From Spirochaetota bacterium (GTDB taxonomy: Bacteria; Spirochaetota; UBA4802; JAKQUI01): DNA of 64,000 nucleotides. Where the stretch lies: assembly GCA_029562645.1 (NCBI GenBank), contig JAKQUI010000005.1, positions 7,961 through 71,960 of the forward strand, written 5' to 3'. This document shows, piece by piece, positions 11,418-41,844 of the stretch. The translations under genes and the position numbers were made by a program. A model generated the notes under the pieces. That model ran no database searches, was not told the origin of the DNA, and saw only the letters and a program-made list of their open reading frames with translations. Positions within the stretch are counted from its first letter, which is position 1, and every line of letters begins with the position of its first letter.

Positions 11418-12467
11418 TCAGCGCACCTCGATGCCAATGATGACCCGGTCGTCCCGAACGGACTGTCCGTCATGCAGGCGGTCCGCCTCGGCGACAATCA
11501 TGTCCAGCGTCTCGCCGATCGGCCGCCGCGCCGCATTCGCCGCGTCAATGATCGGCAGAAAGCCGGCAAGACCAATGGAGCTCTTCCCCTTTTGTTGTAT
11601 GTCGTACATCCCGTCCGTGATCAGAAACAACCGGTCGCCCGGATCAAGCCGCGCCGTATGGCATTCATACCGGCTGTCGCCCCCGTGGCAAATGGGGACG
11701 CCGTCGGAGAGGATCAACTCCGATGTCCCGGCCTGCCCGCGCAGTACGATGGGGTGCGGATGCGCCGCGCGCGAGAAGGTGAAGGCCGTTTCCCCGCCGT
11801 CCCGCTGGAGCACGCCATAGAGCGCGGTGAGATAGTTGTTCTCAGGGATAACCTGCATGAGCTCCCGGTTCACGAGCAGCAGAAACCGGTCGGGCTCCAG
11901 GCCGTGTTTCCGGCAGGCGCGGTCCGATACCACCTTCACGAGGGCGGTGATGAGCGAGGCCGATACGCCGTGACCGGCGACGTCGCCGACAAAGAAGCCG
12001 ACGCCCCCCTCCCGAATCTCGACAATGGACACGAGATCGCCCCCGACCGCCTTCACCGGATTATACCGGTAGTCGATGTCGGCATATGCGCACCGGGGCA
12101 GGTCCGGAAGAAACGACCGCTGCAGGATGCGCGCGTATTCGAGATCGTCGTGTAAGAGCTCGTTTTGCTTTCTCAGCCGCTGTTCGACCTCCGTACGCGC
12201 CGCGATCTCGCGGGTGAGGCGCGCATTTGTCGCATGGAGCCGGTCCTGCCGAATGCCGGCGAGCGCGGCGAACAGTCCCAGGAAGAAGGGGGCCGAGTCG
12301 ATGACCCAGAGGAGGCGGCTGTTGGCCTGCACCGCCGCGATCGTCGCGAGGCCGATCGTGCCGAATTGAAATAACGATTCCACGGCAGTGGAAATCACCG
12401 GAAATAAAAACCCGAAGGCGATCCCATAGGCCGTATACGCCGCTGTCCGTGTCTGAAACAGTATCAT
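11418..12467 (-). CDS. membrane-anchored PP2C/SpoIIE-type Ser/Thr phosphatase
   Basis: About 3-4 N-terminal TM helices, a coiled linker, then a PPM domain with GGDLV, GDVAGHG and ITDG motifs. Confidence 0.7.
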   Translation of the reverse strand: MILFQTRTAAYTAYGIAFGFLFPVISTAVESLFQFGTIGLATIAAVQANSRLLWVIDSAPFFLGLFAALAGIRQDRLHATNARLTREIAARTEVEQRLRKQNELLHDDLEYARILQRSFLPDLPRCAYADIDYRYNPVKAVGGDLVSIVEIREGGVGFFVGDVAGHGVSASLITALVKVVSDRACRKHGLEPDRFLLLVNRELMQVIPENNYLTALYGVLQRDGGETAFTFSRAAHPHPIVLRGQAGTSELILSDGVPICHGGDSRYECHTARLDPGDRLFLITDGMYDIQQKGKSSIGLAGFLPIIDAANAARRPIGETLDMIVAEADRLHDGQSVRDDRVIIGIEVR

Positions 12468-16186: not shown

Positions 16187-17464
16187 TCACTGCACGTCAA
16201 TTACGACGAGGGTGATATCGTCCTCGAAGAAATCGCCGCCGGAAAACTTGCGGAGGGTTTCGATAAGCCCATCGACGAATGCGCGCGGGGTCTGCGTCGC
16301 CCCGTCAGCGATCGCCGTTACGAACGCCTCCATCCCGAACATGGCGCCCTGATCGCTAAAGCCCTCAACAATCCCGTCGGTAAAAAGGACCACCCGGTCC
16401 CCGGGACACAGCCGAACCTCCGCCTGTTCGACCTCTAGGTCATCGAAGAGCCCCAGCGGGCAGCCGCGCGGCTTTACCGGCTCAACCACGCCGCTCGAGC
16501 GCCGATACACGAGAGTGGGAACGTGCCCGGCGGACGCGCATCGCATCGTCTTCGTCGCGCGATCGATCGAGCACAGGCTCGCGGTCACGAAGTTGCAGTC
16601 CACGGTCGCTCCCCGCACCGCGGCGTTCATGCCCGCAAGCACCGCGCCGGGGCCCTCTCTCGACCGCTCGTACTCGAAGGCCATCTTGGTGATGCTTGCC
16701 AGAAAGGCCCCGGGCATGCCGTGCCCGGACACGTCGGCGATGAGAATGTCGATCGTCTCGTCGGACACGCAAAAATCGTAAAAATCGCCCCCCACCAGCT
16801 CCATGGGCAGATACAGCGCATGCAGCGAGAAGCCGGGAATGTCGGGAACCTGCTGGGGCAGCAGACGCCGCTGGAGCTTCTGCGCCACCAGAAGCTCGTC
16901 CTGGATGCGCTGCCGCTCCATGCGATAATTGTCGATGATCACCTTAATGATAAAACCGGTGAACAGGAACCAGACTAGAAAGTTGATGACGAAATCGACG
17001 GTCCGCTCGTCCGTCGAATGATAGTGCCTGGGCGCCGTAATCCCGATATACTCGAGGGAAACCAGCGCAATGATGGCCGCCGGCACCAAGAGAAACAGGA
17101 GAATACGGACCCGCCGCTTAAACACGAGGAGCGAGTAGAGGATCAGGAACTGGTAAAAAAGAAATACGTACCCGATGGACCCGTAGCCGGTTATCCAGAT
17201 CACCACCAGCAGCGCAAACCCCATGACATATAGGACTGGTTCGGACCGGACCTTGCGAAATCGAGACAGGAAGTACAGATAGAAGCCCACGGAGCAGATG
17301 ACCAATACCGACGCGATGTGATAGGCACTCCACTCGAGGATGAACATGAGGGGCATCACGAACACGGTCGCCAGGGGCGTGAAGAACGTCAGGGCATTGT
17401 AGATGCGGTTCTCGAGCGTACTGCGGGACGGATGGCCGATGATGCTGGAAAGGATGGTTCTCAT
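16187..17464 (-). CDS. polytopic membrane PP2C/SpoIIE-type phosphatase
   Basis: About six N-terminal TM helices, then a PPM domain (LVGGDFYDF, SGHGMPGA, FTDGIVE). Confidence 0.7.
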   Translation of the reverse strand: MRTILSSIIGHPSRSTLENRIYNALTFFTPLATVFVMPLMFILEWSAYHIASVLVICSVGFYLYFLSRFRKVRSEPVLYVMGFALLVVIWITGYGSIGYVFLFYQFLILYSLLVFKRRVRILLFLLVPAAIIALVSLEYIGITAPRHYHSTDERTVDFVINFLVWFLFTGFIIKVIIDNYRMERQRIQDELLVAQKLQRRLLPQQVPDIPGFSLHALYLPMELVGGDFYDFCVSDETIDILIADVSGHGMPGAFLASITKMAFEYERSREGPGAVLAGMNAAVRGATVDCNFVTASLCSIDRATKTMRCASAGHVPTLVYRRSSGVVEPVKPRGCPLGLFDDLEVEQAEVRLCPGDRVVLFTDGIVEGFSDQGAMFGMEAFVTAIADGATQTPRAFVDGLIETLRKFSGGDFFEDDITLVVIDVQ

Positions 17465-20550: not shown

Positions 20551-20575
20551 ATCGTGTTCCTTTGCGCGTACGCGC

Positions 20576-21163: not shown

Positions 21164-21170
21164 CGCCGCC

Positions 21171-23302
<2,132 letters not shown>

Positions 23303-23308
23303 GCCGCG

Positions 23309-24753: not shown

Positions 24754-24773
24754 AGGCGTCCCATGCCGGCGGG

Positions 24774-25898
24774 TCACTCCGACTTGACCGACAGCGGCAT
24801 GATCACCGAAATGTAGCGGTCGTCGTTTTCCGGCGCGATCGTCATCGGGCTTTTGCTGCCGGTCACGCCGACGCGAACCACATCGGTATCGATCTCCTTG
24901 AGCGCGTCGATCAGGTACAGCGCGTTCACGCCCAACTCGATGGGGTCGCCGGGGACCGTCTCGATGACGATGTTCTCCTCGGACTCGCCGAAATCCGGGG
25001 AGCGCGCCTCGATCGTGAGGCGGGACCCTTCGAACCGCAGAACGATCTTGTTCACCGGCTCGACGGTGAAGTTGACCGCGCGCCGCAACGATTCCAGGAG
25101 CGGCTCGCGCGCAATGCCGATCCGAAAGCGGTACTCGCGCGGGATCACCTGCGAATAATTCGGAAAGGTCCCCTCGATCGTGCGCGTGACGATCTCGGTG
25201 TTTCCTACGCTGAAGAAACACTGGTTCTTCCCGATGAAAAACCGGCACACCCCGTCCGTCCCGAGAACCGAGTTCACCTCGCGGACCGCCTTGAGCGGAA
25301 GAATGACCCCCTGGGCGATGTCGGACCCGCCGCTTGACGACATCGTGTTCATCGCCAGCCGACGCGAGTCGCTCGCCACGGCCGATATGGTTTTCGGCTC
25401 ATCGGTCACGAAATATACGCCGTTGAATACGGCCTTCACCGTATCGGTCGACGCGGCATAGATGACGCGGCGTATCATGCGCCTGAACGCGGCCTGCTCG
25501 ATCTCGATGACGTCCTCGTCGCCATAGCGCGGTATTTCGGGAAAGTTCTCACCGGACGTCCCGATGATGGAGTACTGGCCGCTCACCTTGCCCGACTGCG
25601 ACCTGATCTGAACCACGTGCCGATCGTCAACCGAAAGCTCAATAACGCCTTCGGGAAGGTCGCGCACGATATTGGCGAATCGCCGCCCTGAGAGCATGAA
25701 CGTCCCCTCTGTGTCGGCGCTTGCGGCGATCCTGGTGCGTATGCCGATCTCCTTGTCGGTCGCCATGATCTCGATCTCGTCGTTGAACACGTTAAACAGG
25801 CAATTCATGAGCACGGCATTGACCGCCTTGGACGATACGACGGAATCGGCGCTGCTGACGGCCTTGAGGAGCGCGTCCTTGCTTGCTTCAATCTTCAT
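24774..25898 (-). CDS. dnaN: DNA polymerase III beta sliding clamp
   Basis: MKIEASKDALLKAVS... three-domain clamp. About 375 aa. Confidence 0.9.
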   Translation of the reverse strand: MKIEASKDALLKAVSSADSVVSSKAVNAVLMNCLFNVFNDEIEIMATDKEIGIRTRIAASADTEGTFMLSGRRFANIVRDLPEGVIELSVDDRHVVQIRSQSGKVSGQYSIIGTSGENFPEIPRYGDEDVIEIEQAAFRRMIRRVIYAASTDTVKAVFNGVYFVTDEPKTISAVASDSRRLAMNTMSSSGGSDIAQGVILPLKAVREVNSVLGTDGVCRFFIGKNQCFFSVGNTEIVTRTIEGTFPNYSQVIPREYRFRIGIAREPLLESLRRAVNFTVEPVNKIVLRFEGSRLTIEARSPDFGESEENIVIETVPGDPIELGVNALYLIDALKEIDTDVVRVGVTGSKSPMTIAPENDDRYISVIMPLSVKSE

Positions 25899-26170
25899 GA
25901 TGTGCACCACACGGTATTATTACTATTATGTGAATATATAATACTATTATATAGTTGTAGTAGTAGGCACGGCGAATATGTGGATACTTCGCTAACTACT
26001 GACGCCATCAGGCATTCCGCATATCGTCCATGTGGACACGAACGAGGCGGAGGGCGAAAACTCTCAATTTAACGCCATGGGTATCAGACAACGAAAAAAT
26101 TATCAACAATAATGCGACATAATAAACAATATACTCACACGTTATCCCCACGTCAGCGCGCGGGTGTCCG
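25899..26170. promoter_or_regulatory. candidate oriC segment / DnaA-box cluster with AT-rich DUE in the dnaA-dnaN intergenic region
   Basis: 25911-25970 is about 80% AT in a ~65% GC genome. DnaA-box-like 9-mers: TGTGGATAC (25979-25987), TGTGGACAC (26031-26039), TTATCAACA (26100-26108), TTATCCCCA (26142-26150). Each is 1-2 mismatches from TTATCCACA. Confidence 0.45.
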
Positions 26171-27508
26171 TTACAGTTTTAGTTCGATGATGAGCTCGTC
26201 GATCTCTTCTTTGAGGTTGGGATCGTCCTTTATCATCTTCTCGACATTGTTCATGGCGTTCAGGACCGTGGAATGATCGCGATCGCCGAATTCCTTGCCG
26301 ATCTCCGTGGTGGTGAGGCTGGTGAGCTTCCTGACGAGGTACATGGCAATGAATCGCGGCAAGACGATCTTGCTGTGACGGCCCTTGGCGCGCAGGTCGT
26401 CCACGGTCACGTCGTATTTCTCGGAGACCTTTTTCATGATGTCGTTGATGGTAATCGCCTTGCTCACCTCGGCGTCGAAAAGATCCTTGATGTGCGTTTT
26501 CGCGTGCTGGATGCTGATGGGCTCGTTTGAAGTCTCTGAGACGTGCCGGAGCCGGTTGAGCGCCGATTCGAGGTAGCGGATGTTCGATTTGATGCGCGTG
26601 GCGATGAAGGTGATGACCTCATCGGGCACGTGGATGCTGTCGCTCTCGGCCTTGTTGCGAAGAATGGCCTCGCGCGTTTCAAGATTTGGCTGCTGGATGT
26701 CGGTGATCAGTCCCCAGGCGAAACGCGTCTTCAGCCGGTCCTCAAGCGTGGAGAGGTCCTTCGGGGGGCGGTCGCTGGATACCACTATCTGTTTTTTGCT
26801 CTGGTGCAGGGTGTTGAAGGTGTGGAAGAATTCCTCCTGGGTCTGCTCCTTGCCCTCGAGGAACTGGATGTCGTCGATGAGCAGCAGGTCCACCTCGCGG
26901 TACTTGATCTTGAAGCTCTCGAGGGTTTTGGTGCGCAGCGAGTTGATGAAATCGTTGATGAACAGCTCGCACTGCACGTAGAGCACTTTGAGAAAGGGGC
27001 GCTCCATCATCACGGAATGGCCGATGGCCTGCATGAGGTGCGTCTTGCCCAGACCGACGCCGCCGTAAAGGAACAGCGGGTTATAGGTGTTACCCGGCGA
27101 TTTCGACACCGACACCGCGGCCGCGTGCGCGAACTGGTTGTTCGGCCCCACGACGAAATTGCTGAAGGTATACCGCGGATTGAGCATCATGGTGGACGGA
27201 TTGTTGATGGTCGACAGGGCGTCCGGAACCGGGATGCCCGTCTGCGCGGCGGGCGACGGCGTGTGGCCGTTTGCAATGACGAACTCGCAGAAATACTGCT
27301 CGCCCGTCAGCTCGCGCAACAGCTCCACGATGAGCGGCTGGTAATTGTCCGCGATGTGACGTCGCGAGACATCGTCCGGGACCGTGATGCGCACCGTCTT
27401 GTCGAGGATCGATTCAACCGACGTGTTCTGAAACCACATGTCGTACGACTGCTTGTTGATCTTTGTTTGTACGCCGGATAACACCTTGTTCCACATTTCG
27501 TGTGTCAT
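26171..27508 (-). CDS. dnaA: chromosomal replication initiator DnaA
   Basis: 445 aa. AAA+ Walker A GGVGLGKTHL. C-terminal DnaA-box-binding domain (IGKEFGDRDHSTVLNA). Confidence 0.97.
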   Translation of the reverse strand: MTHEMWNKVLSGVQTKINKQSYDMWFQNTSVESILDKTVRITVPDDVSRRHIADNYQPLIVELLRELTGEQYFCEFVIANGHTPSPAAQTGIPVPDALSTINNPSTMMLNPRYTFSNFVVGPNNQFAHAAAVSVSKSPGNTYNPLFLYGGVGLGKTHLMQAIGHSVMMERPFLKVLYVQCELFINDFINSLRTKTLESFKIKYREVDLLLIDDIQFLEGKEQTQEEFFHTFNTLHQSKKQIVVSSDRPPKDLSTLEDRLKTRFAWGLITDIQQPNLETREAILRNKAESDSIHVPDEVITFIATRIKSNIRYLESALNRLRHVSETSNEPISIQHAKTHIKDLFDAEVSKAITINDIMKKVSEKYDVTVDDLRAKGRHSKIVLPRFIAMYLVRKLTSLTTTEIGKEFGDRDHSTVLNAMNNVEKMIKDDPNLKEEIDELIIELKL

Positions 27509-27882
27509 ACCTTCCTTGATGCGTTATCAACAATTGTTAATAACTTTGTTTATAAATGGCATATATTTGAGTAGTATTCACCGTGTCATGATAGAAAACG
27601 CGCGGTCCCCAGTATTGTCTCTCGATTGGGGAACCCGAAGGATTATCCTCTGCAATTATTTTCCAAAGGGCTTTTTGGCAAGGATTTTATACTGCCGCAC
27701 AAATCATAGGCATGTTTTTTTCCCGCATGCGGATAGGGTGCGGATATCCTGTGCACAGCCGCCAGATCATTGTTGATAACAGGCGCAGAGATGTTGATAT
27801 CGTGTGGGAAGCGGTGGACAGATGGAAGATGATGCCGCACGCGATCGGCCGGATCATGCCGGCCGATCGCGAACGTTGTGCG
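27509..27882. promoter_or_regulatory. dnaA promoter region with a second DnaA-box cluster and AT-rich segment
   Basis: TTATCAACA (27524-27532) and its inverse TGTTGATAA (27771-27779), TTATCCTCT (27643-27651). AT-rich 27536-27600. Confidence 0.4.
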
Positions 27883-29520
27883 CTACAGTTGATTGAAGTT
27901 CTGCTGGTATCCGGAATTGTTCGGCTCGCGCTTCAGGGCCTCGCCGTACCAGTACTTCGCCTGCGCATTGTCCTTGAGTTTGTTGCGATAGATCCACCCG
28001 AGGTGCCCCGCCGGCCAGGCCTTGTCCCGGTGCTGATTGTGGCAGTCGGTGAGATACTTCACCGCATTCTTGAAATCGCCGACCTCTCCGTAGCAATACC
28101 CGAGGTTCGAGAGCGTGAAGTAGTAGGTGGGGTTATGCTTGAGCGCGACGTGATAGTTCTTGATCGCCTCGCGGTAGTCCTTTTTCACTAGGGAGATATA
28201 GGCGATCTCGCTCCAGGTCTGGTAGTCGTCCGATTTCACCTTCACGGCCTTGCGAAACTGCGCCATCGCCTCGTCGAGACGGTTAAGACGGCGGTAGCCG
28301 ATGCCGAGGTTGCGCAGCCCCAGGATGTAGGTCGGATACTTCTTCAGGACGACCTGGTACATCTCCAGCGCCCGTTCGAGCTGGCCCTTGCGGTCGTACA
28401 CGACCCCCAGGTTCATGTATCCGGTCTTGAACTCGGGATCGATCTCAATGGTGTTCTTGAAGTACTTCTCGGCCAGATCGAGCTTCTTCTGGTCGAGGTA
28501 GATCACCGCGAGGTTGTTGTGCGCGTCGGTGAGGAACTTGTTCTTCTCGATGGAGATCAGCAGATACTTCTCCTCCTGGGCGTCGTTATAGCCGTAGATA
28601 CGGCTGAGCAGAAAGTACGCCTCGGCGTTGTTCGGGTTGATCTCGATCGCCTTGCGCGTTTCGGCCTCGCAGAGCTTCCACTTGTTAGGGACCTTCTTGT
28701 CGTCGACCTCCTGATAGTAGCGCGCCAGGGCGATGTGCGCCTCGTCGAGGTTGGGCGACAGGTCGAGCGCCCGGCGGCTGTTCTGGTACGATTTCTCAAG
28801 CAGCGAGTCGTCGATGCGGTTCTCGTAGTTCTTGAGCTCCCAGCGGCGAAGCGAGTACGCCTTGCCCAGTCCCGAGTAGGCCAGGCTGTAGTTTTTGTCC
28901 ACGCCGATCGCCTTGTCGAACCACTTGATGGCCTCGAGATAGTTGAGCTGATAGAGCAGGTTGCTCATGCCCTTCACGTAGTATTCGTAGGCCGAGATGT
29001 TCTTGGTGAAGTTCTCGGTGATGCGGTTTTTCACGTCCGCCGTGATCTTGATGTTCGTCTGGTCGATGATCTTGAGCGCGATCTCGTCTTGCAGCTCGAA
29101 GATGTTGTCCATCACGCCGGTCGATTCCACCTGCTTGAGGATCTTGTGGCTCTCCACCTCCACGAGCTTGGCGGTGATGCGGATCCGATTGCCGTATTTC
29201 TGGAAGTTGCCCACGACGATGATGTCCGCGCCGAGGGCCTTGCCGGCCTGCTTGGCCTTCTTGTCGTCCAGGACCCCGGTCTGGCCGAGCTGCACCTCGT
29301 GGATGATCTTGTCGACGTTGGTGCGCTCCACGACGATGTAGTCGCGGACATTGCGCAGCTTGTGCGAGACCGAATCGGCGATGCCGATCTCGAGCCACTG
29401 GACAGCCTTTTCGCCCGCAAGGTTCGTGAAGGCGGACACGCCGATCACGGTCTCGGCGACAAGCGCCGCCGGGACCAGCAGGAGCAGGAGCATGATGAGC
29501 GCCGTATTTTTTCGTTGCAT
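27883..29520 (-). CDS. TPR-repeat secreted protein with the same non-TPR N-terminal domain as the 9871 gene
   Basis: Signal peptide MQRKNTALIMLLLLLVPAALVA. N-terminal domain (VSAFTNLAGEK...GADIIVVGNFQKYGNRIRITAKLVEVES) followed by about 9 TPR repeats. GGAGG lies 7 nt upstream of the ATG. Confidence 0.6.
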   Translation of the reverse strand: MQRKNTALIMLLLLLVPAALVAETVIGVSAFTNLAGEKAVQWLEIGIADSVSHKLRNVRDYIVVERTNVDKIIHEVQLGQTGVLDDKKAKQAGKALGADIIVVGNFQKYGNRIRITAKLVEVESHKILKQVESTGVMDNIFELQDEIALKIIDQTNIKITADVKNRITENFTKNISAYEYYVKGMSNLLYQLNYLEAIKWFDKAIGVDKNYSLAYSGLGKAYSLRRWELKNYENRIDDSLLEKSYQNSRRALDLSPNLDEAHIALARYYQEVDDKKVPNKWKLCEAETRKAIEINPNNAEAYFLLSRIYGYNDAQEEKYLLISIEKNKFLTDAHNNLAVIYLDQKKLDLAEKYFKNTIEIDPEFKTGYMNLGVVYDRKGQLERALEMYQVVLKKYPTYILGLRNLGIGYRRLNRLDEAMAQFRKAVKVKSDDYQTWSEIAYISLVKKDYREAIKNYHVALKHNPTYYFTLSNLGYCYGEVGDFKNAVKYLTDCHNQHRDKAWPAGHLGWIYRNKLKDNAQAKYWYGEALKREPNNSGYQQNFNQL

Positions 29521-29667
29521 TGTTTCCTCCGATGAAAGATCGTTCGCCGATGCGGCCGCAGCGCAGTGTGGCACGGCGACGCGATCCTGTCAAGCCGCGA
29601 TTGCCGCGCGACATGGGTGTCGTATATTCGGGAAAAGGTACTTTTTCAAGAAAGAAATGGCATCGAC

Positions 29668-30314: not shown

Positions 30315-30575
30315 ATGAGCGTCATCATCAAGGACATACGCAGAAACGATCGCGAGATCATCCGCATCGAGGTCTCGGAATTCAAGGGACGCGACCTCAT
30401 CAACCTCCGCATCTGGTACCAGGCGGTCGACGAGCGCGGGAATGTCGTGTACAAGCCCACCCAGAAGGGCGTCGCCCTCGACGTATCGAACTACGCCGAA
30501 CTCCTCGACGGGGTCGAGCGCATCGGGAACTATCTCAAGGATCGCGAGGCCGGCGTCAATCCGCTGGGTGAATGA
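30315..30575 (+). CDS. PC4/Sub1-like ssDNA-binding small protein
   Basis: 86 aa. IRIEVSEFKGRDLINLRIWY...GNVVYKPTQKGVALDVSNYAELLDGVERI matches the bacterial PC4 (YdbC-like) beta-sheet/helix pattern. Confidence 0.5.
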   Translation: MSVIIKDIRRNDREIIRIEVSEFKGRDLINLRIWYQAVDERGNVVYKPTQKGVALDVSNYAELLDGVERIGNYLKDREAGVNPLGE

Positions 30576-32028
30576 TCCCCTCCTCGACGAGGCGGGCGAT
30601 GGACGCAACGCACAGCGCCCGCGCCGCGTCAATCTGAAGCTCATCGTGCAGGATGTCCGGGTTCGCCACGCCGCGAAGCACGTCCTCGATCAGGAAGCGC
30701 GGCCCGGAGGGGAGCCCTTCGACGAGGTCCGTCGCATAGCGGGCCCGAAGCCCTTTGAGCGCGGTTGACAGGACAAACCAGCCCGCCGACACGAGGACAT
30801 GCCGGAAGTCGCCCGGACCGATGCGCCGCAGGAGATACGGAAGGCTCTCCGCTCCCAGACCGCGGCGCCGAAGGCGCTGCCGGCGGTACTCGGTCACGAG
30901 TGACGCGTGCGCGGACAGCCGCTCGAGCGGCGACGGCGCGATCGAACCGGCGCGGGAGAGCAGCGACTCGGTGCTGCGTCGGGACACATGCTGGCCGATG
31001 AGGCCCCCGTACCAGGCGGGATCGTCGGCGATGCAGCGCGCGACCGTGTCCTCGTCGCAGGCGGACAGGACCGCGTACAGCAGGCCGTCCGCGGCGATCT
31101 CGAGGAACCAGTCGCGAACGTCCCTCGTCACCGCGATCCGCAGCGATGCGAGAAGCGCCCGTTCCGCCTGAACGGCGCGCAGAAACGGCGCGAAACCGAC
31201 ATCATCCCCCCCGCGCGAAAGGAACAGGACCGCTTCTTCGATGGAGTACGCACCGGCCATGAGATCGCGCCGCGTGAGCCGCTCGAGGCCGCGGTAGCGC
31301 CGCATCAGGGCGCGCACCTCGTCGACGAGGCGCGGCGAGAGGTTTCGCCGTATCCGTCCCGCCTCATCCGGAAGCGCCATCGTCATCACCATGAGTTGGT
31401 AGGGGCCGATGAGCCGTCGGTTCATGAGGCGGTAGAGGAGCGACTGCAGGGCGCTGTCGGAAAGCGAAGCGACGAGGCCGGGCAGATGGGGCAGCAGGCG
31501 CATGGGCTCGTCGAAAAAGGCGAGGACCGCATCATTGAGCGTGTCCGGATCGATCGCCCCGGGGCCGATGAAATGGCGCATGAACGGTGCCGGGAGCGTT
31601 ATTGAACACCCGGCGTCCCCGTCGGTAGAGACCACGGAGAGATCGATGCGGACAGACGGGTCCGTGTCCCCGGTGTGCGCGGTCGGTCCGCGTGGAGCGG
31701 GATCGGCCGCAACCGTCATGCGGCGCTTGAGCAGCATGCTCAGAAGCACGGACGAGAGGCCGCAGGCGTCGGCCGTGTGGCGGGAAAGGGATTCGAAAAG
31801 CTCGCCGGGCAGATCCAGATTGCGTATCTCGATGCGATGGACGGCCGGCGCATCCGTGACGGACAGATGCATGCTCGCCGCGGCGCCGGGCTCGGCGCGA
31901 TCGGACTGGAGGCGCAGGGGAGAGAGCGCCATGGTGCAGCCCGGACGCGCGCGGCGGAAAAAGTCGTCGGTGTCGGGCAGGAGCAGGGCGATGATGAGTC
32001 GGGAGGCGGCGGTTCCCGGCAGGGTCAA
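30556..32028 (-). CDS. hypothetical protein with a C-terminal FliG-C / MgtE-N-like helical domain (tentative); start uncertain
   Basis: The C-terminus ALKGLRARYATDLVEGLPSGPRFLIEDVLRGV...ARLVEEGII resembles the FliG C-terminal torque helix region (ALKG...GPVR...RLEEAGEI) but with shorter spacing. The listed start at 32028 is a TTG giving a TTGA overlap with the upstream RR-PP2C gene. ATG alternatives are at 31932 and 31872. Confidence 0.3.
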   Translation of the reverse strand: MTLPGTAASRLIIALLLPDTDDFFRRARPGCTMALSPLRLQSDRAEPGAAASMHLSVTDAPAVHRIEIRNLDLPGELFESLSRHTADACGLSSVLLSMLLKRRMTVAADPAPRGPTAHTGDTDPSVRIDLSVVSTDGDAGCSITLPAPFMRHFIGPGAIDPDTLNDAVLAFFDEPMRLLPHLPGLVASLSDSALQSLLYRLMNRRLIGPYQLMVMTMALPDEAGRIRRNLSPRLVDEVRALMRRYRGLERLTRRDLMAGAYSIEEAVLFLSRGGDDVGFAPFLRAVQAERALLASLRIAVTRDVRDWFLEIAADGLLYAVLSACDEDTVARCIADDPAWYGGLIGQHVSRRSTESLLSRAGSIAPSPLERLSAHASLVTEYRRQRLRRRGLGAESLPYLLRRIGPGDFRHVLVSAGWFVLSTALKGLRARYATDLVEGLPSGPRFLIEDVLRGVANPDILHDELQIDAARALCVASIARLVEEGIIHPAD

Positions 32029-33188
32029 AACTCGATGCTCAGAAAGGCGATGTCGTCCTTTCGGCGGTCCAGCGACGTGAACGATTGCAATTCTGCGAGC
32101 AGCCCCTCGCAGAAGTCGTCGCCGTGCAGGTCGCCGCGCGCCTTCATGAAGGCGCCGATGCGTCCCTCGCCGAACTCCTCGTTCTCGGCGTTTCGCACCT
32201 CGGAGATCCCGTCGGTGTATAGGAAGAGGCGGTCGCCCGGTTCCACGCGCAACGCCTTCTCGCCGTAGTTCGCGTCGTCGGCGATGCCCACGAAGAGGCC
32301 GTCGGTGTCCAACAGGAGCACGGCGTTCTTGCTCTTTCGGAAGTACAGCGCGCGGGTGTGGCCGGCATTGGTGAAGTGGATCGTGTTCTCGGCGGGATGA
32401 TAGATCACGTAAAACGCCGTGATGTACTGGTTGTCGAGCAGGAGGCCCTTCATCTCGCGGTTCACGGCGGCCAGAAGCTCGCTCGTTGAGCCGATGTTCG
32501 CGGCGTAGATGCTGAAGATCATCTTGGACATGGACATGACCAGGGCCGCCGGGATGCCGTGGCCGGTCACGTCGGCGATGAGCATGCCGACCGAGCCGTC
32601 GGGGAGCGTGTAGCAGTCGAAGTAGTCGCCGCCGATGTCCTCGATCGGGAGATACCGTCCGCTGATGGTCGGATAGGAGATCTGCGCAAAGCTTTTCGGG
32701 ATGATGAACTGCTGGACCTTCTTGGCGATCTCCAGCTCTTTTTTGATCTGCAGGTTTTTCGCGAAGAGCTCGTCGTGGGCGCGCTTGAGCTTGAGCAGCG
32801 AATTGACCCGGGCGACCAGCTCCTTCTCGTTGAGCGGCTTGAGCAGGAAGTCGTCGGCGCCGATGGACAGCCCCTTGATCTTCGAGTTGAGATCGTCCGA
32901 GCCGGTCATCAGGATCACCGGGATGAACTCATCGCGCACGTGGTCCTTGAAGCGCTCCAAGAACCCGAACCCGTCAAGGTTGGGCATGATGATGTCGACC
33001 AGGATGAGATCGAACCGCCGCCGCGCGAGGATGTCGAGCCCCTCCTGGCCGTCGGCCGCCTCGGTCACGGCGATGTTCATGCGGTCGAGCGTTTTGCGGA
33101 CGATGGCGCGGTTCAGACGGGTATCGTCGATAACGAGGATTTCCCAGGGGGTCTCTTTCTGGAGATAATCGTTGATGAGCATGGCCAT
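32025..33188 (-). CDS. response-regulator receiver fused to a PP2C/SpoIIE phosphatase (RsbU-like)
   Basis: Start at MAMLINDY. REC domain with ILVIDD...DLILVDIIMPNLDG. PPM domain with GGDYFD, DVTGHG, YTDGISE. Confidence 0.8.
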   Translation of the reverse strand: MAMLINDYLQKETPWEILVIDDTRLNRAIVRKTLDRMNIAVTEAADGQEGLDILARRRFDLILVDIIMPNLDGFGFLERFKDHVRDEFIPVILMTGSDDLNSKIKGLSIGADDFLLKPLNEKELVARVNSLLKLKRAHDELFAKNLQIKKELEIAKKVQQFIIPKSFAQISYPTISGRYLPIEDIGGDYFDCYTLPDGSVGMLIADVTGHGIPAALVMSMSKMIFSIYAANIGSTSELLAAVNREMKGLLLDNQYITAFYVIYHPAENTIHFTNAGHTRALYFRKSKNAVLLLDTDGLFVGIADDANYGEKALRVEPGDRLFLYTDGISEVRNAENEEFGEGRIGAFMKARGDLHGDDFCEGLLAELQSFTSLDRRKDDIAFLSIEF

Positions 33189-33485
33189 GCGTGGTACCGT
33201 TGTGCTCCCGCGTCGTGACGGTGCAACCGTAGTCGCGTAAAACGAAAGTTCAATTAAAATATTGCGCCGGGGGAAAAAAACGAACAGCCCCCTGGGGATT
33301 GTAATTGACAAAGACCGCCCCTGCCGAGGCATGCTGTCCCGTCGCACAAATGATTGAATCGAGGGGTGCACCGTGAGCAAACAGTACAACCCCGGCGAAA
33401 AGCGCAAGCGCGCGAAGCGCCGGCTCAAGCGGAAAAAGCAGAAACAACACGAGCAGCGCAAGCAGGGAAAATAGCGACCGCCGCA

Positions 33486-36400
33486 TCAGCGCCGGATAAT
33501 GATGCTGTGCCGCTCCGCCGTTTTCAACGCAACGCAGAATTTTACGAAATCTTGATACTCGCCCGGCTCGATACGGGCGCGCGAAAAGCGAACGGATTTC
33601 ACGACCCGCAGGGTGCGTGAACCCTTCGCTTTTTTTATGTCGATGCGGGCGTGCCCGTGGCGGGCCGTGAGCCGCACCTCGCGCTCGACGACGGCGTCGG
33701 CAAATCGATCGGGCAGGGTGAACTCGTAAGCGTCGTCCTCGCTGATGGCGTGCCGGATGACCAGGGGCGTCTCGCGCCGTTCGTAGTGGAGATAGTCGAG
33801 CACGCGGCTCGACTGCGACATCGGCTGCAGGATGATGCGGTCGTGGCCGACCGTCGCGAACGAGTCGCAGCGGCCGCGCGCCGCAATCACGAACGGACGT
33901 GAGTATTCGCGAAGGTTCGACAGGCGGAACTCGTCGATGCTCATCGAGGGGAACATCCCGCCCAGGACGGCGTTGACGCGATCCTCGCGGTAGGTCGCAT
34001 TCATGAAATCGCGCCGCATCGACCCGGTACGGCCCTCGTAGGCCACCTCGGCGTCGATGGCGGCGTCTCCCGCATCCGAGATCGTAATGCGATACCTGCC
34101 CGCAATCCCGCCGGGCGTCGTGTCGCGGACGGTCCGATGCTCGAACCCGTTTTTCAAAAGCACCAGGGCCTCGACGCCCGCCAGCTCCTCGGGGACCGCC
34201 CCGCAGGGGGCATGGCGGCCGGTGAAATCGAGCCACAACGACTCGCGCCCGTCCAGCGGGACGTAGAGGAGCGCGTGGGTGAACGCGTCCGGGGACATGA
34301 AGGCGCCCGTCGGCGGCAGGTGCGCATCGCGCGCGACGGCGATGAAGGACCGAATCCCCAGTCCCGCCAGGAGCGATTTCGCGAGTACCGCCTTGTCCTC
34401 CGGCGTGCCGCGCATCCGCATGAGGGTGTTTTCCGCCGGCTCCGGGTGGTACAGAACATTGCGCAGCGTGTCCATCTCTCGCGCCGTGAATTCGTACACG
34501 CGATCGACCGTTTCGCGCAGCGTGGGGGCCGCAAAACGACGCGCCGCCGCGGGGTCGATTCGCTCCGCGTTCGCTATGATGCCTCCGTACCAGGTGACGA
34601 AGTCGGAGGCGTCGCGCATGCTCGAAAAAGCGTAGTGCGGAAGTCGCCCGATGCCGGGGCCGCTGTCGTATTCGCGCCGGACCGCCGGGAGGTCGGTGAG
34701 CGTGATCGCGTGGCGGACGCCGCCGGCGACCGCGGTGCGCTCCCGCACGCCCTCGCGGTTGCATACGAGCGTGATCTCCTGTCCTGCGGGGGACGTGACG
34801 CTGATATCGCAGCGGTCCACCGGCTCATCGAACCCCGACAGCGCCGTCAGGGGGATGGAGAAGAAGCTCGAATTGCGCGGCTCGGTCACCGGAAAATCGA
34901 CCACATAGGCGATATGCACCACCGAGCCGATCGAGAGCGACGAAAGATTGAGATAATTGGTCCCGTTGATCTTCTCGATGCGATGGGAATCGCTGAAGCT
35001 CCCATCGGCGTGGTACACCCGCGCCCGCACCGGGTGGAGCGTTCCCGCGAAGGCGATCTCGTACTCGCCCCAGCGTTCGAGCTGCTTCCGGTCTTTCACC
35101 AGATACACGTCCTCGCACAAGACGCGGCTTCCCCCGTCGGCCATGAGGTGGAAAAACCGGCCGCGGTATAGGATGCGCGAGGGGCGCGATTCGGTGTCGG
35201 CGGATACGCCGCGCAGGATCGCGTCCTCGGCGCCGCCGATCCCGTTTCGAGCGAACGGGCTCTCGATCCGCTGGCGCGCCAGGTACGACATGAGCTCGGT
35301 CATGGTGAACAGGGACGGCTTGAGCGCGAGCATCTTGTCCCAGTGCGCCGACGGGTCGGCGCCGCGCCGGTAGTAGAGCTCGCCGAGCTTCAGGAGCAGA
35401 TACGGGTCCTCGCGGCGCGACAGGGCGTCGATGATGGCCGCGCGGGCGCCGGGCTCGTCGCCCTTCGCGATATACGCGTCGATGAGCTCGGCGATCAGCT
35501 CGCCCTCGGGATCGCGCGATCGAAGGAGGCTCACGATCTCCTGGTGCGCGCCGCGGTTTTTGTACAGGCGGACGAGCGCGGTGAGGTCGCTGCGGTCGTT
35601 CCGAGCCGCGAGCGCGACGCGCAGAGCGTCTTCGGCGGCGCGTGGATTTTTCGCGCGGACATGGGACGCGAACAGGCGGTGCGGCGCGGGCGACGACGGA
35701 AAGGCCAGGCGAAACGAGCGAAGCGCATCGTCGAATTCTGTATCATATCCGAGCTCGGAGAGGAAGCGCGCATGGGCGACCCGGGCCGGCAGATAGCGGG
35801 GCGCATCGGCGATGAGGTCGCGTCCCGTGCGGAACGCACCGCGATAATCGCGGCGCTCACGCTCCCGCTGGAAGCGCCTGAAGCGCGCCGGCGCGAAGTC
35901 GGGATGCTCGCGATTGAGCGATTCGTACAGGGTCCACCCCTCGCTGGCGAGGGCGCTCGCGGCGTTCTCCCCGTAGGCGATCAGCGCCGCGGCGAGGGTG
36001 AAGCGATATACGGGGTCGGGACGCCGGGCGATGGCGGCGCGATAGTGCGCGATCGATTCACGGCTGTTCAGCTCGTCATAGTAGGTGCCGAGCGCGAAGT
36101 GGGACTCGGCGGTGTCGGACCGGAGGCGCTCGACGAGTGCGGGAAACGGGACGTCGGGCTCCTCGATGCAGGCGGCCTCGTCAGTGCTCGTCTCGTCGGG
36201 ACGGGCCGTCGTCGGAACGATCGCGTCGTTCGCATCGGTCACCAGGACGCGAAAGCGCCAGTCGCCCTTTTTCATCACTTTGAGGAGCAGCGAGATGCGG
36301 CGCGGGCCCTCGACGCGGAGGACGCGCAGGTTTCGCGAGGTCCCGGACGGGTGATTGCGGACCGCCTCGCGGCCGTTCACGAAGAGCGTGTACGGGCCCT

Positions 36401-37082
36401 CGGCGTAGACGCGGACCTTCACCGGACCCGGCGCGACGATGGTGGTCGCCGCGTAGGCGACGCCGTCATCGGGATAGAGGTAGCGCGAGAGGTCCACCGC
36501 CCCCGAGGCGGCATCGACACGGACGATCTTTCGATGCACCGATGCGTCGCTGAGTTTGATGGAGAGCTCGGGCGGGAAGGGGTGGCGAAGGTCGGCGTCG
36601 CCAAACCGGTAGTAGGGGCCGATGAGCGTCCAGGTGCGCACGGGAGACAGGCGGGCCGACACCGCGGCGGCACGCGTGCGATCGAACTGATAGAGCGCCC
36701 GCTCCAGTTCAACCATGAGCGTGAGGCGCGCGATGTTCCGGTGCGGCCCCCCACCGCGCTCGACCGCCGCGATCAGTTTCTCCAGCGTCGCTGCGACGCG
36801 CGCGGGCCCGTGCACATCGGCAAGGCGCGCCAGATCATAATAATATAGGAACGATTCGAAACGGTCGGGAAACGCCGTGAGCAGGCGCTCGATCGCATCG
36901 TACAGCGCGACGTAATCGCCCGAGGAAAACGCCGCGTTAACGGCGCGCTCGAGCTCGGAAAAGGCGTGCGGCGCATCGGGAGCGGCCGTTGCGGCGCGGG
37001 CCGGCGATATCGTGACGAGCGCGATGAGGAAGAACGTAGCGAGCGCGAGAAGGAAGTGGCGCGCGCGACGATGTATGTTCAT
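33486..37082 (-). CDS. large secreted TPR / DUF3857 / transglutaminase-like protein, catalytic Cys replaced by Thr (probable pseudoenzyme)
   Basis: Signal peptide. The core reads RGTPEDKAVLAKSLLAGLGIRSFIA instead of GDC.D. His (FTHALLYV) and Asp (LWLDFTG) are still present. Same overall architecture as 38056..41736. Start at MNIHRR (ATG) 5 nt after the ADH stop. Confidence 0.55.
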   Translation of the reverse strand: MNIHRRARHFLLALATFFLIALVTISPARAATAAPDAPHAFSELERAVNAAFSSGDYVALYDAIERLLTAFPDRFESFLYYYDLARLADVHGPARVAATLEKLIAAVERGGGPHRNIARLTLMVELERALYQFDRTRAAAVSARLSPVRTWTLIGPYYRFGDADLRHPFPPELSIKLSDASVHRKIVRVDAASGAVDLSRYLYPDDGVAYAATTIVAPGPVKVRVYAEGPYTLFVNGREAVRNHPSGTSRNLRVLRVEGPRRISLLLKVMKKGDWRFRVLVTDANDAIVPTTARPDETSTDEAACIEEPDVPFPALVERLRSDTAESHFALGTYYDELNSRESIAHYRAAIARRPDPVYRFTLAAALIAYGENAASALASEGWTLYESLNREHPDFAPARFRRFQRERERRDYRGAFRTGRDLIADAPRYLPARVAHARFLSELGYDTEFDDALRSFRLAFPSSPAPHRLFASHVRAKNPRAAEDALRVALAARNDRSDLTALVRLYKNRGAHQEIVSLLRSRDPEGELIAELIDAYIAKGDEPGARAAIIDALSRREDPYLLLKLGELYYRRGADPSAHWDKMLALKPSLFTMTELMSYLARQRIESPFARNGIGGAEDAILRGVSADTESRPSRILYRGRFFHLMADGGSRVLCEDVYLVKDRKQLERWGEYEIAFAGTLHPVRARVYHADGSFSDSHRIEKINGTNYLNLSSLSIGSVVHIAYVVDFPVTEPRNSSFFSIPLTALSGFDEPVDRCDISVTSPAGQEITLVCNREGVRERTAVAGGVRHAITLTDLPAVRREYDSGPGIGRLPHYAFSSMRDASDFVTWYGGIIANAERIDPAAARRFAAPTLRETVDRVYEFTAREMDTLRNVLYHPEPAENTLMRMRGTPEDKAVLAKSLLAGLGIRSFIAVARDAHLPPTGAFMSPDAFTHALLYVPLDGRESLWLDFTGRHAPCGAVPEELAGVEALVLLKNGFEHRTVRDTTPGGIAGRYRITISDAGDAAIDAEVAYEGRTGSMRRDFMNATYREDRVNAVLGGMFPSMSIDEFRLSNLREYSRPFVIAARGRCDSFATVGHDRIILQPMSQSSRVLDYLHYERRETPLVIRHAISEDDAYEFTLPDRFADAVVEREVRLTARHGHARIDIKKAKGSRTLRVVKSVRFSRARIEPGEYQDFVKFCVALKTAERHSIIIRR

Positions 37083-37087
37083 GCGAT

Positions 37088-38059
37088 TCACCGGGTGCAC
37101 TCCACGACATATTTTTTATACGTACCGGACAGGTCCGACAGGACGCGCGCCGCCTCCTCGAGGGAGATCACGGCCTCGACGAAGGGGAGCGGATCGACGA
37201 GCCCCTGCGCGAGAAGCTCGATCGCCGGCGCGAACGGGCCGCAACGGGTGCCGATCACGGTGATCTCGTCCACCACGACGCGGTTGAAGTCGACCGTGAG
37301 CGCCCCGGCGAAGGTGCTCTTGGCGAACAGCGTCCCGAGCGGTTCGATATGGTCGAGCGCCAGCGAAAACCCGCCCGGCGTGCCCGATGCCTCCACGACC
37401 ACCGGAAAGCGCGACCGGTCATCGCCGACGCCGTCGCGATGCGAGCGCAGCGAGATCCTCGGATAGCGCTCGCCGAAGATGCGCATCTTGTCGTCGTGCT
37501 TTCCGATCAGCGTGACGGCGTTCCCGCGCAGCGAGAGAACCCCGACGATGAGGTACGAGAGGATGCCGTCGCCGATCACCAGGACCGAAAGCTCGGGGGC
37601 GAACGGGCGCACCGAGACGATCTCGAGCGCGGCGGCCAGCGGTTCGATAAAGGCGCCATGCACCGGGGAGAGCCCTTCGGGAAGGACGTATAGATTGCGC
37701 GCCGGGAGCGTGGCGTATTCGGCCATCACGCCGTCCTTGCGGAAGATGCCCAGCGTCGTTCGAGTGGGGCAGTGATGATACCGACCCTGCGCGCACGTCG
37801 GACAGTCGTGGCAGGCGAGGTTGATGTCGCCGGTGACGCTCGCGCCGACGAGCGACGGATCGTCGGTCTCGACGACCGTGCCGATGAACTCATGTCCCGG
37901 AATGCCGGTAAATCGCATGTAGCCGCGGGCGATCTCGCGATCGGTCCGGCACACCCCGGCGTAGCGGACCCGGATGAGGGCCTCCCCGGCGGTGCGGACG
38001 GGCTCCGGGAGATCGGTGCGGTATCGCATCGTCGTTCCATCGAAGTGGATCCCCTTCAT
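37088..38059 (-). CDS. zinc-dependent alcohol dehydrogenase (medium-chain dehydrogenase/reductase family)
   Basis: GVCRTD and GHEFIG catalytic-zinc motifs. Structural-zinc Cys cluster CHDCPTC. Rossmann VIGDGILS. ATGA overlap with the upstream gene. Confidence 0.8.
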   Translation of the reverse strand: MKGIHFDGTTMRYRTDLPEPVRTAGEALIRVRYAGVCRTDREIARGYMRFTGIPGHEFIGTVVETDDPSLVGASVTGDINLACHDCPTCAQGRYHHCPTRTTLGIFRKDGVMAEYATLPARNLYVLPEGLSPVHGAFIEPLAAALEIVSVRPFAPELSVLVIGDGILSYLIVGVLSLRGNAVTLIGKHDDKMRIFGERYPRISLRSHRDGVGDDRSRFPVVVEASGTPGGFSLALDHIEPLGTLFAKSTFAGALTVDFNRVVVDEITVIGTRCGPFAPAIELLAQGLVDPLPFVEAVISLEEAARVLSDLSGTYKKYVVECTR

Positions 38060-41000
38060 GGGCCGTTCCTCCGGATGATGATCTTTTCGTTCTCCTTCCG
38101 GTTCACGAAACGGGTGAAATCGCGAAACCGCGCATAGGACCCGATGGGAATCCGATGGGCCTTGAAGGCGATGTGCGATACAACCTCGATCACGCCCTCG
38201 CGCGCGACGAACCGGAATCGCGCCTCGCAGTCGTCGGTAACGAATTGCTCGCTTTTCGGGACCGAGACCGGGGAAAACCCCTGCGGCAGATGATACCGGA
38301 TGACGGTGTCGCTGGAGAAGGTCGTGGTGAACACGACGGGGTGCGTCCGCGAGCGAAGCATGGCGTACGTGCTGTAGTAGTTCGATGCGGAGAAAAACGG
38401 GCCAAAGACCATCTCGGCGCCGTCGGTCTCCAGGAAGGAGGGGACCGTAATGGTGTACCGGTACACCATCGGCTCATCGGGTTCGGCGGCGCCGTACTCC
38501 GGGGGCGAAATCGTCGCGCCCGGAAAGCGCTCGTTCCAGTAGGCCGAGATCGACGCGCGCTTCTTCTCGCGGTCCTGGAGCTCGGACCGGGACCCCACCG
38601 CGTATGATCCGCGCTTCGAGAGCGTGCGGACGATGCGCGCATCGCCGGCGGGCGTCAGGTACACGTCGTTTGTCACATCGTCGCGGTTCTCGGCGTAGCG
38701 GCGGTGCGCGGTGTCGATGAACCGGTATCGCCGATCGCCCACGACGAATGCGGTGATTGCGCGGTCGGTCGACGGCAGCTCGCTCATGCCGGCGAGCTTC
38801 GCGGTCCCGTCGAGGAACAGGGGGCCGTTCGCATCGACGTGGCATATCGCGTGGTTGAAATCGCCCAGGTAGGGGACCGCGAGGTTGGCCGGGCCGTTGT
38901 CCCGGGTGCGGACCAGCGCCAGGTTCGCGTCGATTCCAGCGGCGCGCAGGAAGGCCGCGAGCACCAGGGAGATGTCCTTACAGTCGCCCATGCGGGTGTG
39001 ATAGGTCTGGTCGGCATGGCGCGGTCGGATGCCACCGATGCCCAGCTCGAAGCCCACGTAGCGGATATGCGCGTTCACGTGGTTGTAGATGCGGCGGATC
39101 GTATCGTCGCGACCGGACGCGCCGGCCACCGCTGTTCGCAGCGCATCGCGCATCTCGGCGCTCATCGTCATGCGGTCCTTCACCAGCGAACGGTACCAGC
39201 CGTGCGCCTCCGTCCAGTTTCGGAAGGTCGTAAAATAGAGCATCGGGACCAGCTGGCTGCGGTGGGGCATCAGCGACTCCTTCTTGTACGGGGCGCGGTC
39301 GCGAAGATGGAGCCGATGGACGGTATCGGCGGGACCGACCGTTGTGGCAATCGGCGATCCGTCGATCCCGCGCAGGTGCGGATAGACCGATTTGTCGCGC
39401 GGATGCGCAAGGACGCAGTTGAACACCAGGGTCCGGTGCTCGCCGCCGACGGGAATGCGCTCGCCGAAATAGCCCTTGTATATCTCCCCCACGCGACTGA
39501 TGCGGGTATAGCGCAGATCGATGATGCTCCCCGGCCCCAGCGAGGGCAGGGGGATCACCTTCGCCTTCACGTCATAGAAGAGCCGGCTCTCGGGATCGGA
39601 AAGGGAGCGGTCGTAGAAGGCGGTCACGGCGGTGCGGGTCCCGTCGTTGATCACCCCACAGTCGATGTCCTCGATGGAATCCGTCTCCGGTGAATACACG
39701 ATGTACTGACGCGTAAACTCGTCGAGGGCGCTCCGGTCGTTGATGAGAACGGCCTTCCGGACCCGGTGCTCGTAGGACCCGTCGGGGAGGACCCGTATCA
39801 TCGTCTCGTCGATGAGGATTACGGCGGCCTCGTCTCGGTGCCGCGCGGCGGCGCGCGCAAGGTCGCGGATATCGTCGCGGACCGCATGGCCGTCAAGCGG
39901 ATCGGGCCGGTTTTCGATGATGGTCAGATAGCGCTTGAGCGCAACGTTTCCCTGGTCGTGACGAAGGGCGCGCGCAAGATAGTGACGCGCGAGGGCGTCG
40001 TTTCCCAGCCGGTGGTACACCAGCCCAAGGCGCATGAGGGCGCCTGCGTGCTGCGGCGCGCGCTGGAGGAGCGCGCCGAGATAGGGAACCGCCGCACCCG
40101 GACCCTGGGTCTGCTCGATGATGTCGATCAGGCGAATCAGCGTGTTCGGATCGTCAGGATACAGGACCAGCGAGTGGGTGAGGACCGACGTGGCGCGGTC
40201 CAGGTCGCCGGTCGCGGTGAGGCAGCGCACGAGCCGGTCGATCACGACGGGATTGCCCCGCTCCCGATTGTAGTGCCATTCGATGCTCGGCAGCGCCGCG
40301 GCGTTGTCGCCGCGCGAGAGGTGCATGATGCCCTCAATGGCGCGTCCCGTCGAGGGATACCGGGAGCGCTGCGCCTCGCGCGCCAGCCGCAGGCCCTCGG
40401 TGTGCCAGCCCAGCGCCTCGAAAAGCCGCGCCGAAACGATCGGGTATTTGAATGACGCCCGGTTCTCGCGACCGATCGCCTCAATCAGCGGCGCGGCTTC
40501 GTAGAGAAAGCCGGTGCGGATCTTGCCGTGCGCAAGCTCCGTGAGCGCCTCGATGTGGTCCTTGTGCGCGCGCAGGCATTCGTGAAGATGCGCCTCGCGT
40601 TGTTCCGCGGTCTTTTCGATCATCGCCAGATACCAGCGCGCGGGAACCGGCACTGCGAGCGAGCGCTGGAAGAGCGCGCGCACCTCCTCGATGGACTTCC
40701 CGGCAAGCCCGGTGGCCTGGAGCAGGTACCCGAGGCGAAAGGCGGCCATTGGATCTTGCGCCGCGAAATTGGAGAGCCCGGCGGCGGAGGGAAACAGCGA
40801 CGAGGATACCGCCGCAGGAGCGCTTCCGCGCTCGATCGCGGTGTGCGGCGATACGGGTGCGGGTACCGCTCGGCCGTCAGCGTCGGTCAGCCGAAGGGAA
40901 ACCCGGATGCCGTCTCCATCGGCGGCGCCGATCTTGACCAGAATCGCGTGCGCGCCTTTCGTGAGACGGGCAGAGATCCGGTACTGGTCGTGAAAGAAGG

Positions 41001-41736: not shown

Positions 41737-41844
41737 GATAGAGCGGTGCGTTCGAACGCGTCTCCCCGGGAAAAAATTATGTTTGAATAGAGCGGCCGGG
41801 CGGATAATATTCAACCATAATTTCTTTACGATCATCATCGAGCC

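Follow-up and report, generated by a model that had tools for sequence, protein, structure and literature searches.

The stretch of DNA analysed here (the window) is 64,000 nucleotides (nt) of a Spirochaetota bacterium (contig JAKQUI010000005.1, positions 7,961 to 71,960), and its minus strand carries a two-gene unit approximately 3 kb from dnaA. The first gene (32025..33188) encodes a response regulator of 387 residues, in which a receiver (REC) domain is joined to a PP2C phosphatase domain (hereafter REC-PP2C). The second (30556..32028) encodes a protein of 490 residues that is predicted, with high confidence, to combine a domain of the FliM-middle/CheC fold with three FliG-type helical domains in one chain, and which is referred to below as the hybrid. 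The genes overlap by 4 nt (TTGA, 32025..32028): REC-PP2C ends ...GAG TTT TGA, and the hybrid starts at 32028 in another frame, TTG ACC. An earlier reading of the letters alone (the sequence-only reading) had placed a gene directly downstream of the phosphatase with just this overlap if the TTG start was used, and both the sequence and the N-termini of homologues agree with it. Through the overlap the hybrid gene is predicted to be translationally coupled to REC-PP2C. The two genes are, moreover, very probably co-transcribed, given the overlap, a spacing of 1-4 nt in ten related loci and the absence from the window of any promoter- or terminator-like site between them; where both genes are present, the distance from stop to start is -4 nt in the window and no more than ~70 nt in most loci other than these ten. 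A candidate sigma-70-like promoter lies upstream of REC-PP2C on the same strand (33298..33327, by match to the consensus). Facing the pair is a separate transcription unit, a PC4-like gene with a single-stranded DNA-binding fold (30315..30575, plus strand, 86 residues, Pfam PC4 1.1e-11), the 3′ end of which overlaps 20 nt of the 3′ end of the hybrid gene.

A search of 5.8 billion proteins returned 26 relatives of the hybrid at E<=1e-47. Most are 477-492 residues long and cover at least 98% of the 490-residue query. Residues 1-25 of the query align with the N-termini of the relatives (MLLNISSRIIINLLLNDIDEFF). Because the homologues are near full-length and aligned from their N-termini, 30556..32028 reads as a real, conserved gene for which TTG is the correct start. 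Its GC content by codon position (0.73/0.50/0.83) follows the pattern of the other window genes. The ATG at residue 33 was considered as an alternative start and rejected, as the fold begins with helices made of residues 1-30, which align with the N-termini of homologues. The family is judged to be small, since 1.84 billion cluster representatives, searched exhaustively with HMMER, yielded only 95 proteins at E<=1e-3, 55 of them at E<=1e-30. Counted in this way, among representatives clustered at 50% identity, a new family of approximately 55 strong hits is defined for annotation. All strong hits are currently labelled 'hypothetical protein', and no Pfam or NCBIfam family model for the hybrid was found. 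Every one of the 25 loci from one-genome-per-species collections came from a metagenome-assembled genome (MAG) of the Spirochaetota, labelled Spirochaetota, Leptospirales or Leptospiraceae. In the open-access full text, no report was found of this family or of a natural FliM_M-FliG-type fusion. A FliM-middle domain and a complete FliG-type body occurring naturally in one chain are thus apparently undescribed.

An AlphaFold2 model built from the family alignment (mean predicted local distance difference test score, pLDDT, 88.3; predicted template modelling score, pTM, 0.86) has an alpha/beta domain at residues 1-~155 followed by an all-helical body at residues 164-482. The body consists of three modules with long linker helices between them, as in FliG N/M/C. 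On the minus strand, the N-terminal alpha/beta domain (residues 1-160, 31549..32028) has the FliM-middle/CheC/CheX/FliY fold according to a model of the domain and Foldseek. It is followed by D1 (residues 161-278, 31195..31548), a FliG-type armadillo-like domain ending in a long linker helix, and D2 (residues 279-392, 30853..31194), a FliG-type module; both were delimited with AlphaFold2 and Foldseek, and D2 also with Pfam matches in remote homologues. The C-terminal domain D3 (residues 393-490, 30559..30852) is FliG_C-like. When the full-length model was compared with the PDB using Foldseek, all of the best matches (41/41) were FliM_M, FliY, CheC, CheX or FliG. The FliM middle domain, FliY, CheC and CheX were matched over ~160-200 columns, and full-length FliG or FliG-MC (3hjl, 8umx_B, 1lkv, 3usy) over ~300-340 columns with a probability of at least 0.97 (3hjl, 328 columns, E 3.6e-3; 8umx_B, 336 columns). 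The root mean square deviation to the FliG structures was high because the domain orientations differ. Modelled alone (pLDDT 86.8, pTM 0.83), the N-terminal domain gave 33 top PDB matches that were all FliM_M, FliY, CheC or CheX (query TM-score, TMq, 0.35-0.60; E 1e-5 to 8e-3), the best structural scores being those of the FliM middle domain (TMq 0.56-0.60); past rank 33 the probability dropped sharply to <0.2. The hybrid is a cytoplasmic protein.

Sequence profiles point to the same relationship at the C-terminus. PF01706 (FliG_C; gathering score 23.3 bits) matched the C-terminal ~90 residues of 14 of the 26 family members, the best match (P0013, 9.4e-6, 26.3 bits) being the only one above the gathering score; a further match fell within D2 (P0009, residues 319-363). 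The D2-equivalent domain of remote homologues scored 25.9-33.2 bits, above that cut-off. In a comparison of the family profile with PDB sequences, the best match was FliG-C (1qc7), aligned along LSTALKG...LIEDVL.G..NP...A....I..L.E.G.I. Comparison by hhalign placed single E. coli FliG (E=0.063) and FliM (E=0.34) sequences at the expected places in the family, and a FliG alignment that was all enterobacterial among the matches listed, all but one at >=87% identity, gave E=0.05. D1, D2 and D3 also aligned with one another in register but weakly (E 0.014-0.45; D1 with D2 and D3, E 0.014-0.057), a signal of internal repetition that is suggestive only. The sequence-only reading had seen a FliG-C or MgtE-N helical motif in the C-terminus and had named structure prediction as the check. 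The FliG half of that suggestion holds and extends beyond the C-terminus over the whole helical body. The MgtE-N half was dropped: MgtE_N had no Pfam hit at E<=1 in the window protein or the family, and no MgtE was among the 50 best Foldseek matches. Nor is the 'GP[RV]' of the hybrid positionally equivalent to the GPVR of FliG, the equivalent being the invariant N456-P457. Pfam hits to 7TMR-HDED in 10 of the 26 members overlapped the FliG_C-like region below the cut-off and were treated as cross-matches.

Conservation is unevenly spread along the chain. Family members are 19% identical to the window protein in the N-terminal domain, 33% in D1, 23% in D2 and 50% in D3. The last is the most conserved part (GWFVLSTALKG...LIEDVL.G..NPNILHDE.Q) and contains most of the invariant residues, namely W417, F418, S421, T422, A423, L424, K425, P440, D449, N456, P457, D462 and Q465. 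Motifs of the switch proteins were counted in 68-69 family members, with E. coli FliG (EHPQ, MFxF) and FliM (GGxG, N-peptide) as positive controls in which they were found. EHPQR is the FliM-binding motif of FliG and MFxF its hinge motif; EHPQ was found in 0/69 members and MFxF in 2/69. Similarly, the FliM GGxG motif was present in 2/69 members and the N-terminal CheY-binding peptide of FliM (LSQxEIDxLL) in 0/69. The FliG_N and FliG_M Pfam models had no match at E<=1 in 26 members, and Pfam FliM, CheC, CheX and FliMN_C did not match the hybrid. With these motifs absent or nearly so, the hybrid is not a canonical FliG or FliM: the fold is alike, but the tests of sequence and motif failed. CheC-type phosphatase activity of the N-terminal domain was also ruled out, as the active-site motif (D/S-x3-E-x2-N-x22-P) is absent from the window protein and from all members (0/68). 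None of the matches checked from the exhaustive profile search was a canonical FliG, and two hits of ~345 residues had FliG_C in mid-protein only. Flagellar genes were found neither in the window nor in the core-family loci.

Beyond the core family lies a second tier of profile matches (340-560 residues, E 1e-19 to 1e-4) that are homologous over the helical body. One of these (P0081, 479 residues; L119 6001-9214), which matched the family by hhalign with 98.2% probability (E 3.5e-14), is encoded directly upstream of a complete fliF. At that locus it is immediately preceded by a HEAT-repeat gene, FapA is encoded 4 kb upstream, and no fliG follows fliF on that strand. Another (P0084, 563 residues; L122 4062-8516) is followed on the same strand, within 1-2.4 kb, by genes for a methyl-accepting chemotaxis protein and a 120-residue single-domain receiver. 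Upstream of it, on the other strand, a REC-REC protein and a HATPase_c_2 kinase are encoded. These two contexts fit a flagellar or chemotaxis theme, anecdotally.

The upstream gene was as the sequence-only reading described it, a receiver-domain PP2C phosphatase. The receiver domain occupies residues 17-129 (32802..33140, minus strand; Pfam Response_reg 9.5e-28) and the catalytic PP2C domain residues 196-386 (32031..32603, minus strand; Pfam SpoIIE 1.1e-45). Thirteen orthologues align from the MAMLIN start, and in these the receiver residues D21/D22 (acidic pocket), D65 (phospho-acceptor), T95 and K117 are invariant. Also invariant in the orthologue alignment are the PP2C motifs IGGDYFD, ADVTGHG, YTDG and DDIAF and the metal-binding aspartates D188, D206 (DVTGHG), D326 (YTDG) and D378/D379, so far as the sequence can tell those of an apparently active phosphatase. 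The closest NCBIfam model is Pseudomonas RssB (REC+PP2C); because the score was 112 bits against a cut-off of 700 bits, REC-PP2C is best classed as an ordinary receiver-PP2C and not as an RssB equivalog.

Loci carrying the hybrid gene fall into three types of context. Type A is origin-proximal, with the order Macro, orotidine monophosphate (OMP) decarboxylase, (radical SAM), [REC-PP2C], hybrid, convergent PC4, (GDSL, NUDIX, methyltransferase), dnaA. The window belongs to this type, with ~26 kb of extra genes between REC-PP2C and the Macro/OMP decarboxylase pair. In type B the order is DnaJ, PCI, LysM, hybrid, and in type C it is 3HCDH, SDR, hybrid. REC-PP2C lies directly upstream of the hybrid gene in ~14 type-A species. 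A metagenome scan recovered 39 loci with REC-PP2C orthologues at >=52% identity, all in the same block, and of the 27 with readable downstream sequence 11 have the hybrid gene directly downstream. No hybrid gene was found at 41 loci of paralogous REC-PP2C genes (<=36% identity). In a crude neighbour-joining tree of the hybrid family, rooted on a remote homologue, the REC-adjacent state occurs in most clades including the basal ones; the loci of types B and C, and those of type A that lack REC-PP2C, fall inside it. The REC-PP2C/hybrid operon is probably ancestral. The most constant neighbour in the clade is the PC4-like gene, found at all origin-proximal loci whether or not they have the hybrid gene.

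These contexts bear on whether the hybrid has anything to do with flagella. It could instead be a generic scaffold or ion sensor acting through its FliG/MgtE-N-type domains, or could have a role at the chromosome origin beside dnaA and the PC4-like gene. The loss of the canonical FliG/FliM interface motifs, the lack of flagellar genes near core-family loci and the constant origin-proximal position of type-A loci are all consistent with this. However, without flagellar ancestry it is difficult to account for two independent switch-complex folds in the same chain, and MgtE is missing from the top structural matches. Moreover, the gene works away from the origin in types B and C, and PC4 persists where the hybrid gene is lacking. 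A non-flagellar role is therefore considered improbable.

With the fold in mind, and by analogy with its known members, we tentatively propose that the hybrid is a non-enzymatic, switch-derived adaptor with a receiver-docking FliM-like end, a reading we hold as possible and as the likeliest of those considered. The conserved FliG_C-like end would bind a fixed partner, most plausibly a component of the flagellar motor, and the fast-evolving FliM/CheC-like end would offer a docking surface for receivers. The latter is proposed because, to our knowledge, every characterised member of the CheC/CheX/FliY/FliM fold family binds CheY~P. Where a genome has the ancestral operon, the N-terminal domain would most likely bind the receiver of the REC-PP2C translated with it, and phosphorylation of this receiver might tether the phosphatase to the adaptor or release it, perhaps at the motor.

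Several observations weigh against this proposal. Neither Pfam (E<=1) nor NCBIfam gave a hit for the window protein itself. The link to the motor comes from fold ancestry and from the two anecdotal contexts of remote homologues, and four other such contexts were uninformative. Five type-A loci (L012, L013, L015, L016, L031) and every type B and C locus lack REC-PP2C; overall, no REC-PP2C stands within 1.5-6 kb upstream of the hybrid gene in 15 of 29 species-level loci. Conversely, 16 of the 27 readable REC-PP2C orthologue loci run straight into PC4 with no hybrid gene there. The pairing is thus facultative: either gene is found at the site without the other, and they are not obligate partners. 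Where they do adjoin, the conserved adjacency could reflect inheritance and not selection, because the whole block (Macro, OMP decarboxylase, radical SAM, PC4, dnaA) is syntenic across the clade.

It is possible, and nearly as likely as the docking adaptor, that the two are neighbours by descent only, the hybrid belonging to flagellar or cell-pole biology and the target of REC-PP2C, whether STAS-type or some other phosphoprotein, being encoded elsewhere in the genome. The three configurations at one chromosomal site (both genes, REC-PP2C only, hybrid only) and the synteny of the surrounding block are what this would produce. The genes also evolve at strongly different rates: between the same genomes, identity is 61-66% in REC-PP2C and only 26-35% in the hybrid. 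The two further PP2C genes of the window are likewise orphans, and one paralogous REC-PP2C (L085) has a STAS gene directly upstream. Descent alone fits less well with the shared strand and the overlap or 1-4 nt spacing in most loci that have both genes, with a REC-adjacent state that appears ancestral for the hybrid family, and with an N-terminal fold whose known members all bind receiver domains.

The sequence-only reading had offered another model, in which the hybrid is a phospho-substrate of the PP2C domain and a switch or scaffold protein takes the place of STAS in a partner-switch. Its factual basis was borne out. Pfam on called genes confirmed three PP2C (SpoIIE) genes in the window (11418..12467, 16187..17464 and 32025..33188), the genes having been called by codon-position GC before the Pfam scan. 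No STAS or HATPase_c_2 domain was detected in the 64-kb window among the called genes and 32 intergenic small open reading frames, and a STAS protein of a related spirochaete MAG, used as tblastn query against the window, gave no match. The hybrid also lacks STAS and HATPase_c_2 matches in Pfam, in the window protein and in family members. Nor were genes for a STAS antagonist and a HATPase_c_2 kinase found beside the REC-PP2C orthologues examined. The PP2C genes at 11418-12467 and 16187-17464 (both minus strand) have N-terminal regions without a recognised domain and weakly resemble SiaA and RssB-type phosphatases. At type C loci (L008/L023, L025, L027) a STAS gene is situated 2.5-3 kb downstream of the hybrid gene, and in L008 genes for a PAS-rich protein and flagellin come just past it.

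The inference drawn from that basis did not survive as well. Locus co-occurrence had been named beforehand as a test that could refute it, and the counts of loci with the hybrid only (15/29) and with REC-PP2C only (16/27) do not support a phosphatase acting on the hybrid in place of STAS. Operon coupling, a PP2C domain that looks catalytically competent, the absence of STAS and anti-sigma genes from the window, and invariant Ser/Thr residues in the hybrid (S231, S262, S421, T422) are in its favour. Yet these residues lie in helix-core motifs (LSTALKG, YSIEEA) and are more likely structural, none of the examined loci has a gene for a Ser/Thr kinase or a HATPase_c_2 protein alongside the pair, and the genes separate freely. 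Neither of the other two window PP2C genes has STAS or kinase neighbours, so the absence of an adjacent STAS gene is normal here and is no mark of a replaced partner. A phospho-switch in place of STAS is consequently weakly supported, with adjacency its sole positive evidence, and we think the hybrid improbable as a substrate of the phosphatase.

To return to the docking adaptor, a bolder form of it is unlikely though conceivable. Here the hybrid would be a single-chain 'mini switch complex' that brings a receiver-controlled Ser/Thr phosphatase to the periplasmic-flagellar motor, or that acts as a receiver sink. If so, two-component input would reach the motor by protein dephosphorylation, bypassing CheY/FliM, and this could bear on the differing behaviour of motors at the two ends of the spirochaete cell. 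More generally, one spirochaete lineage seems to have reused parts of the switch complex to make a new cytoplasmic protein, with a receiver-phosphatase as the ancestral operon partner. Contact of the hybrid with the motor or with a CheY-like receiver, if it occurs, would open a way into the accessory control of periplasmic flagella; if there is none, the hybrid would be a clean example of exaptation of flagellar folds.

The surroundings of the pair were also inspected. Positions 18100-27900 of the window are the chromosomal replication origin region, with gyrA, a 195-residue gene of unknown function, gyrB, a RemA-like gene, dciA, recF, dnaN and dnaA at 18.1-27.5 kb (minus strand). The minimum of cumulative GC skew is at ~24-26 kb, and of 10 near-consensus DnaA boxes, 5 are in the two AT-richer intergenic stretches on either side of dnaA (25979-26150, 27524-27779). 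Between dnaA and the GDSL lipase gene is a gene (27883-29574, minus strand) for a probable lipoprotein of 563 residues, with a CsgG/FlgO-like N-terminal region and many tetratricopeptide (TPR) repeats, which has the same position in L010, L016 and L028. On the other side of the pair, at 33486-41838 (minus strand), two giant paralogues (1204 and 1260 residues; TPR, DUF3857, transglutaminase core and DUF3858) bracket a Zn-dependent alcohol dehydrogenase. These and ~20 kb more of genes are inserted between REC-PP2C and the Macro/OMP decarboxylase pair, which in related genomes adjoins REC-PP2C or sits a gene or two away. Further along, 55131-57383 (minus strand) encodes a 750-residue fusion of unusual architecture, in which an ATP-grasp, L-amino-acid-ligase-like part (ATP-grasp_4, LAL_C2) is joined to a flavin mononucleotide-dependent alpha-hydroxyacid dehydrogenase. 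A 611-residue protein encoded at 7993-9828 (minus strand) has a Tim44-like domain, a double zinc ribbon and a glycine-rich N-terminal stretch after a signal-like segment.

Of the known systems, FliG is the closest to the helical part of the hybrid. The region of residues ~160-490 superposes on FliG (3hjl, 1lkv, 8umx chain B) over ~330 columns, three tandem FliG-type modules are joined by long linker helices in both, and the C-terminal domain has the same ALKG...(torque-helix-like) ED...EEG-I pattern. In contrast to FliG, the hybrid carries an extra FliM-like N-terminal domain of 160 residues, its gene lies outside flagellar operons, EHPQ and MFxF are absent or nearly so, and FliG_N and FliG_M are unmatched. 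The N-terminal domain shares its alpha/beta fold with the FliM middle domain, CheC, CheX and FliY (4gc8, 4hyn, 1xko, 3hzh), its sole significant structural matches, but lacks a Pfam match, the CheC motif, the N-peptide and a C-terminal FliN/SpoA domain, and GGxG is nearly absent. FliG and FliM are normally separate, stoichiometric ring subunits. MgtE_N belongs to the same Pfam clan as FliG, and the general FliG/MgtE-N helical repeat is common to the N-terminal domain of MgtE and to the hybrid, which has neither CBS nor membrane domains. Finally, REC-PP2C response regulators of the RsbU/SpoIIE type act in partner-switching, as in the RssB-RssC and HsbR-HsbA systems of Pseudomonas. The REC-PP2C described here has the same architecture and intact catalytic motifs, whereas no STAS or anti-sigma kinase gene adjoins it, and its conserved downstream gene, where present, is instead the FliM/FliG hybrid.

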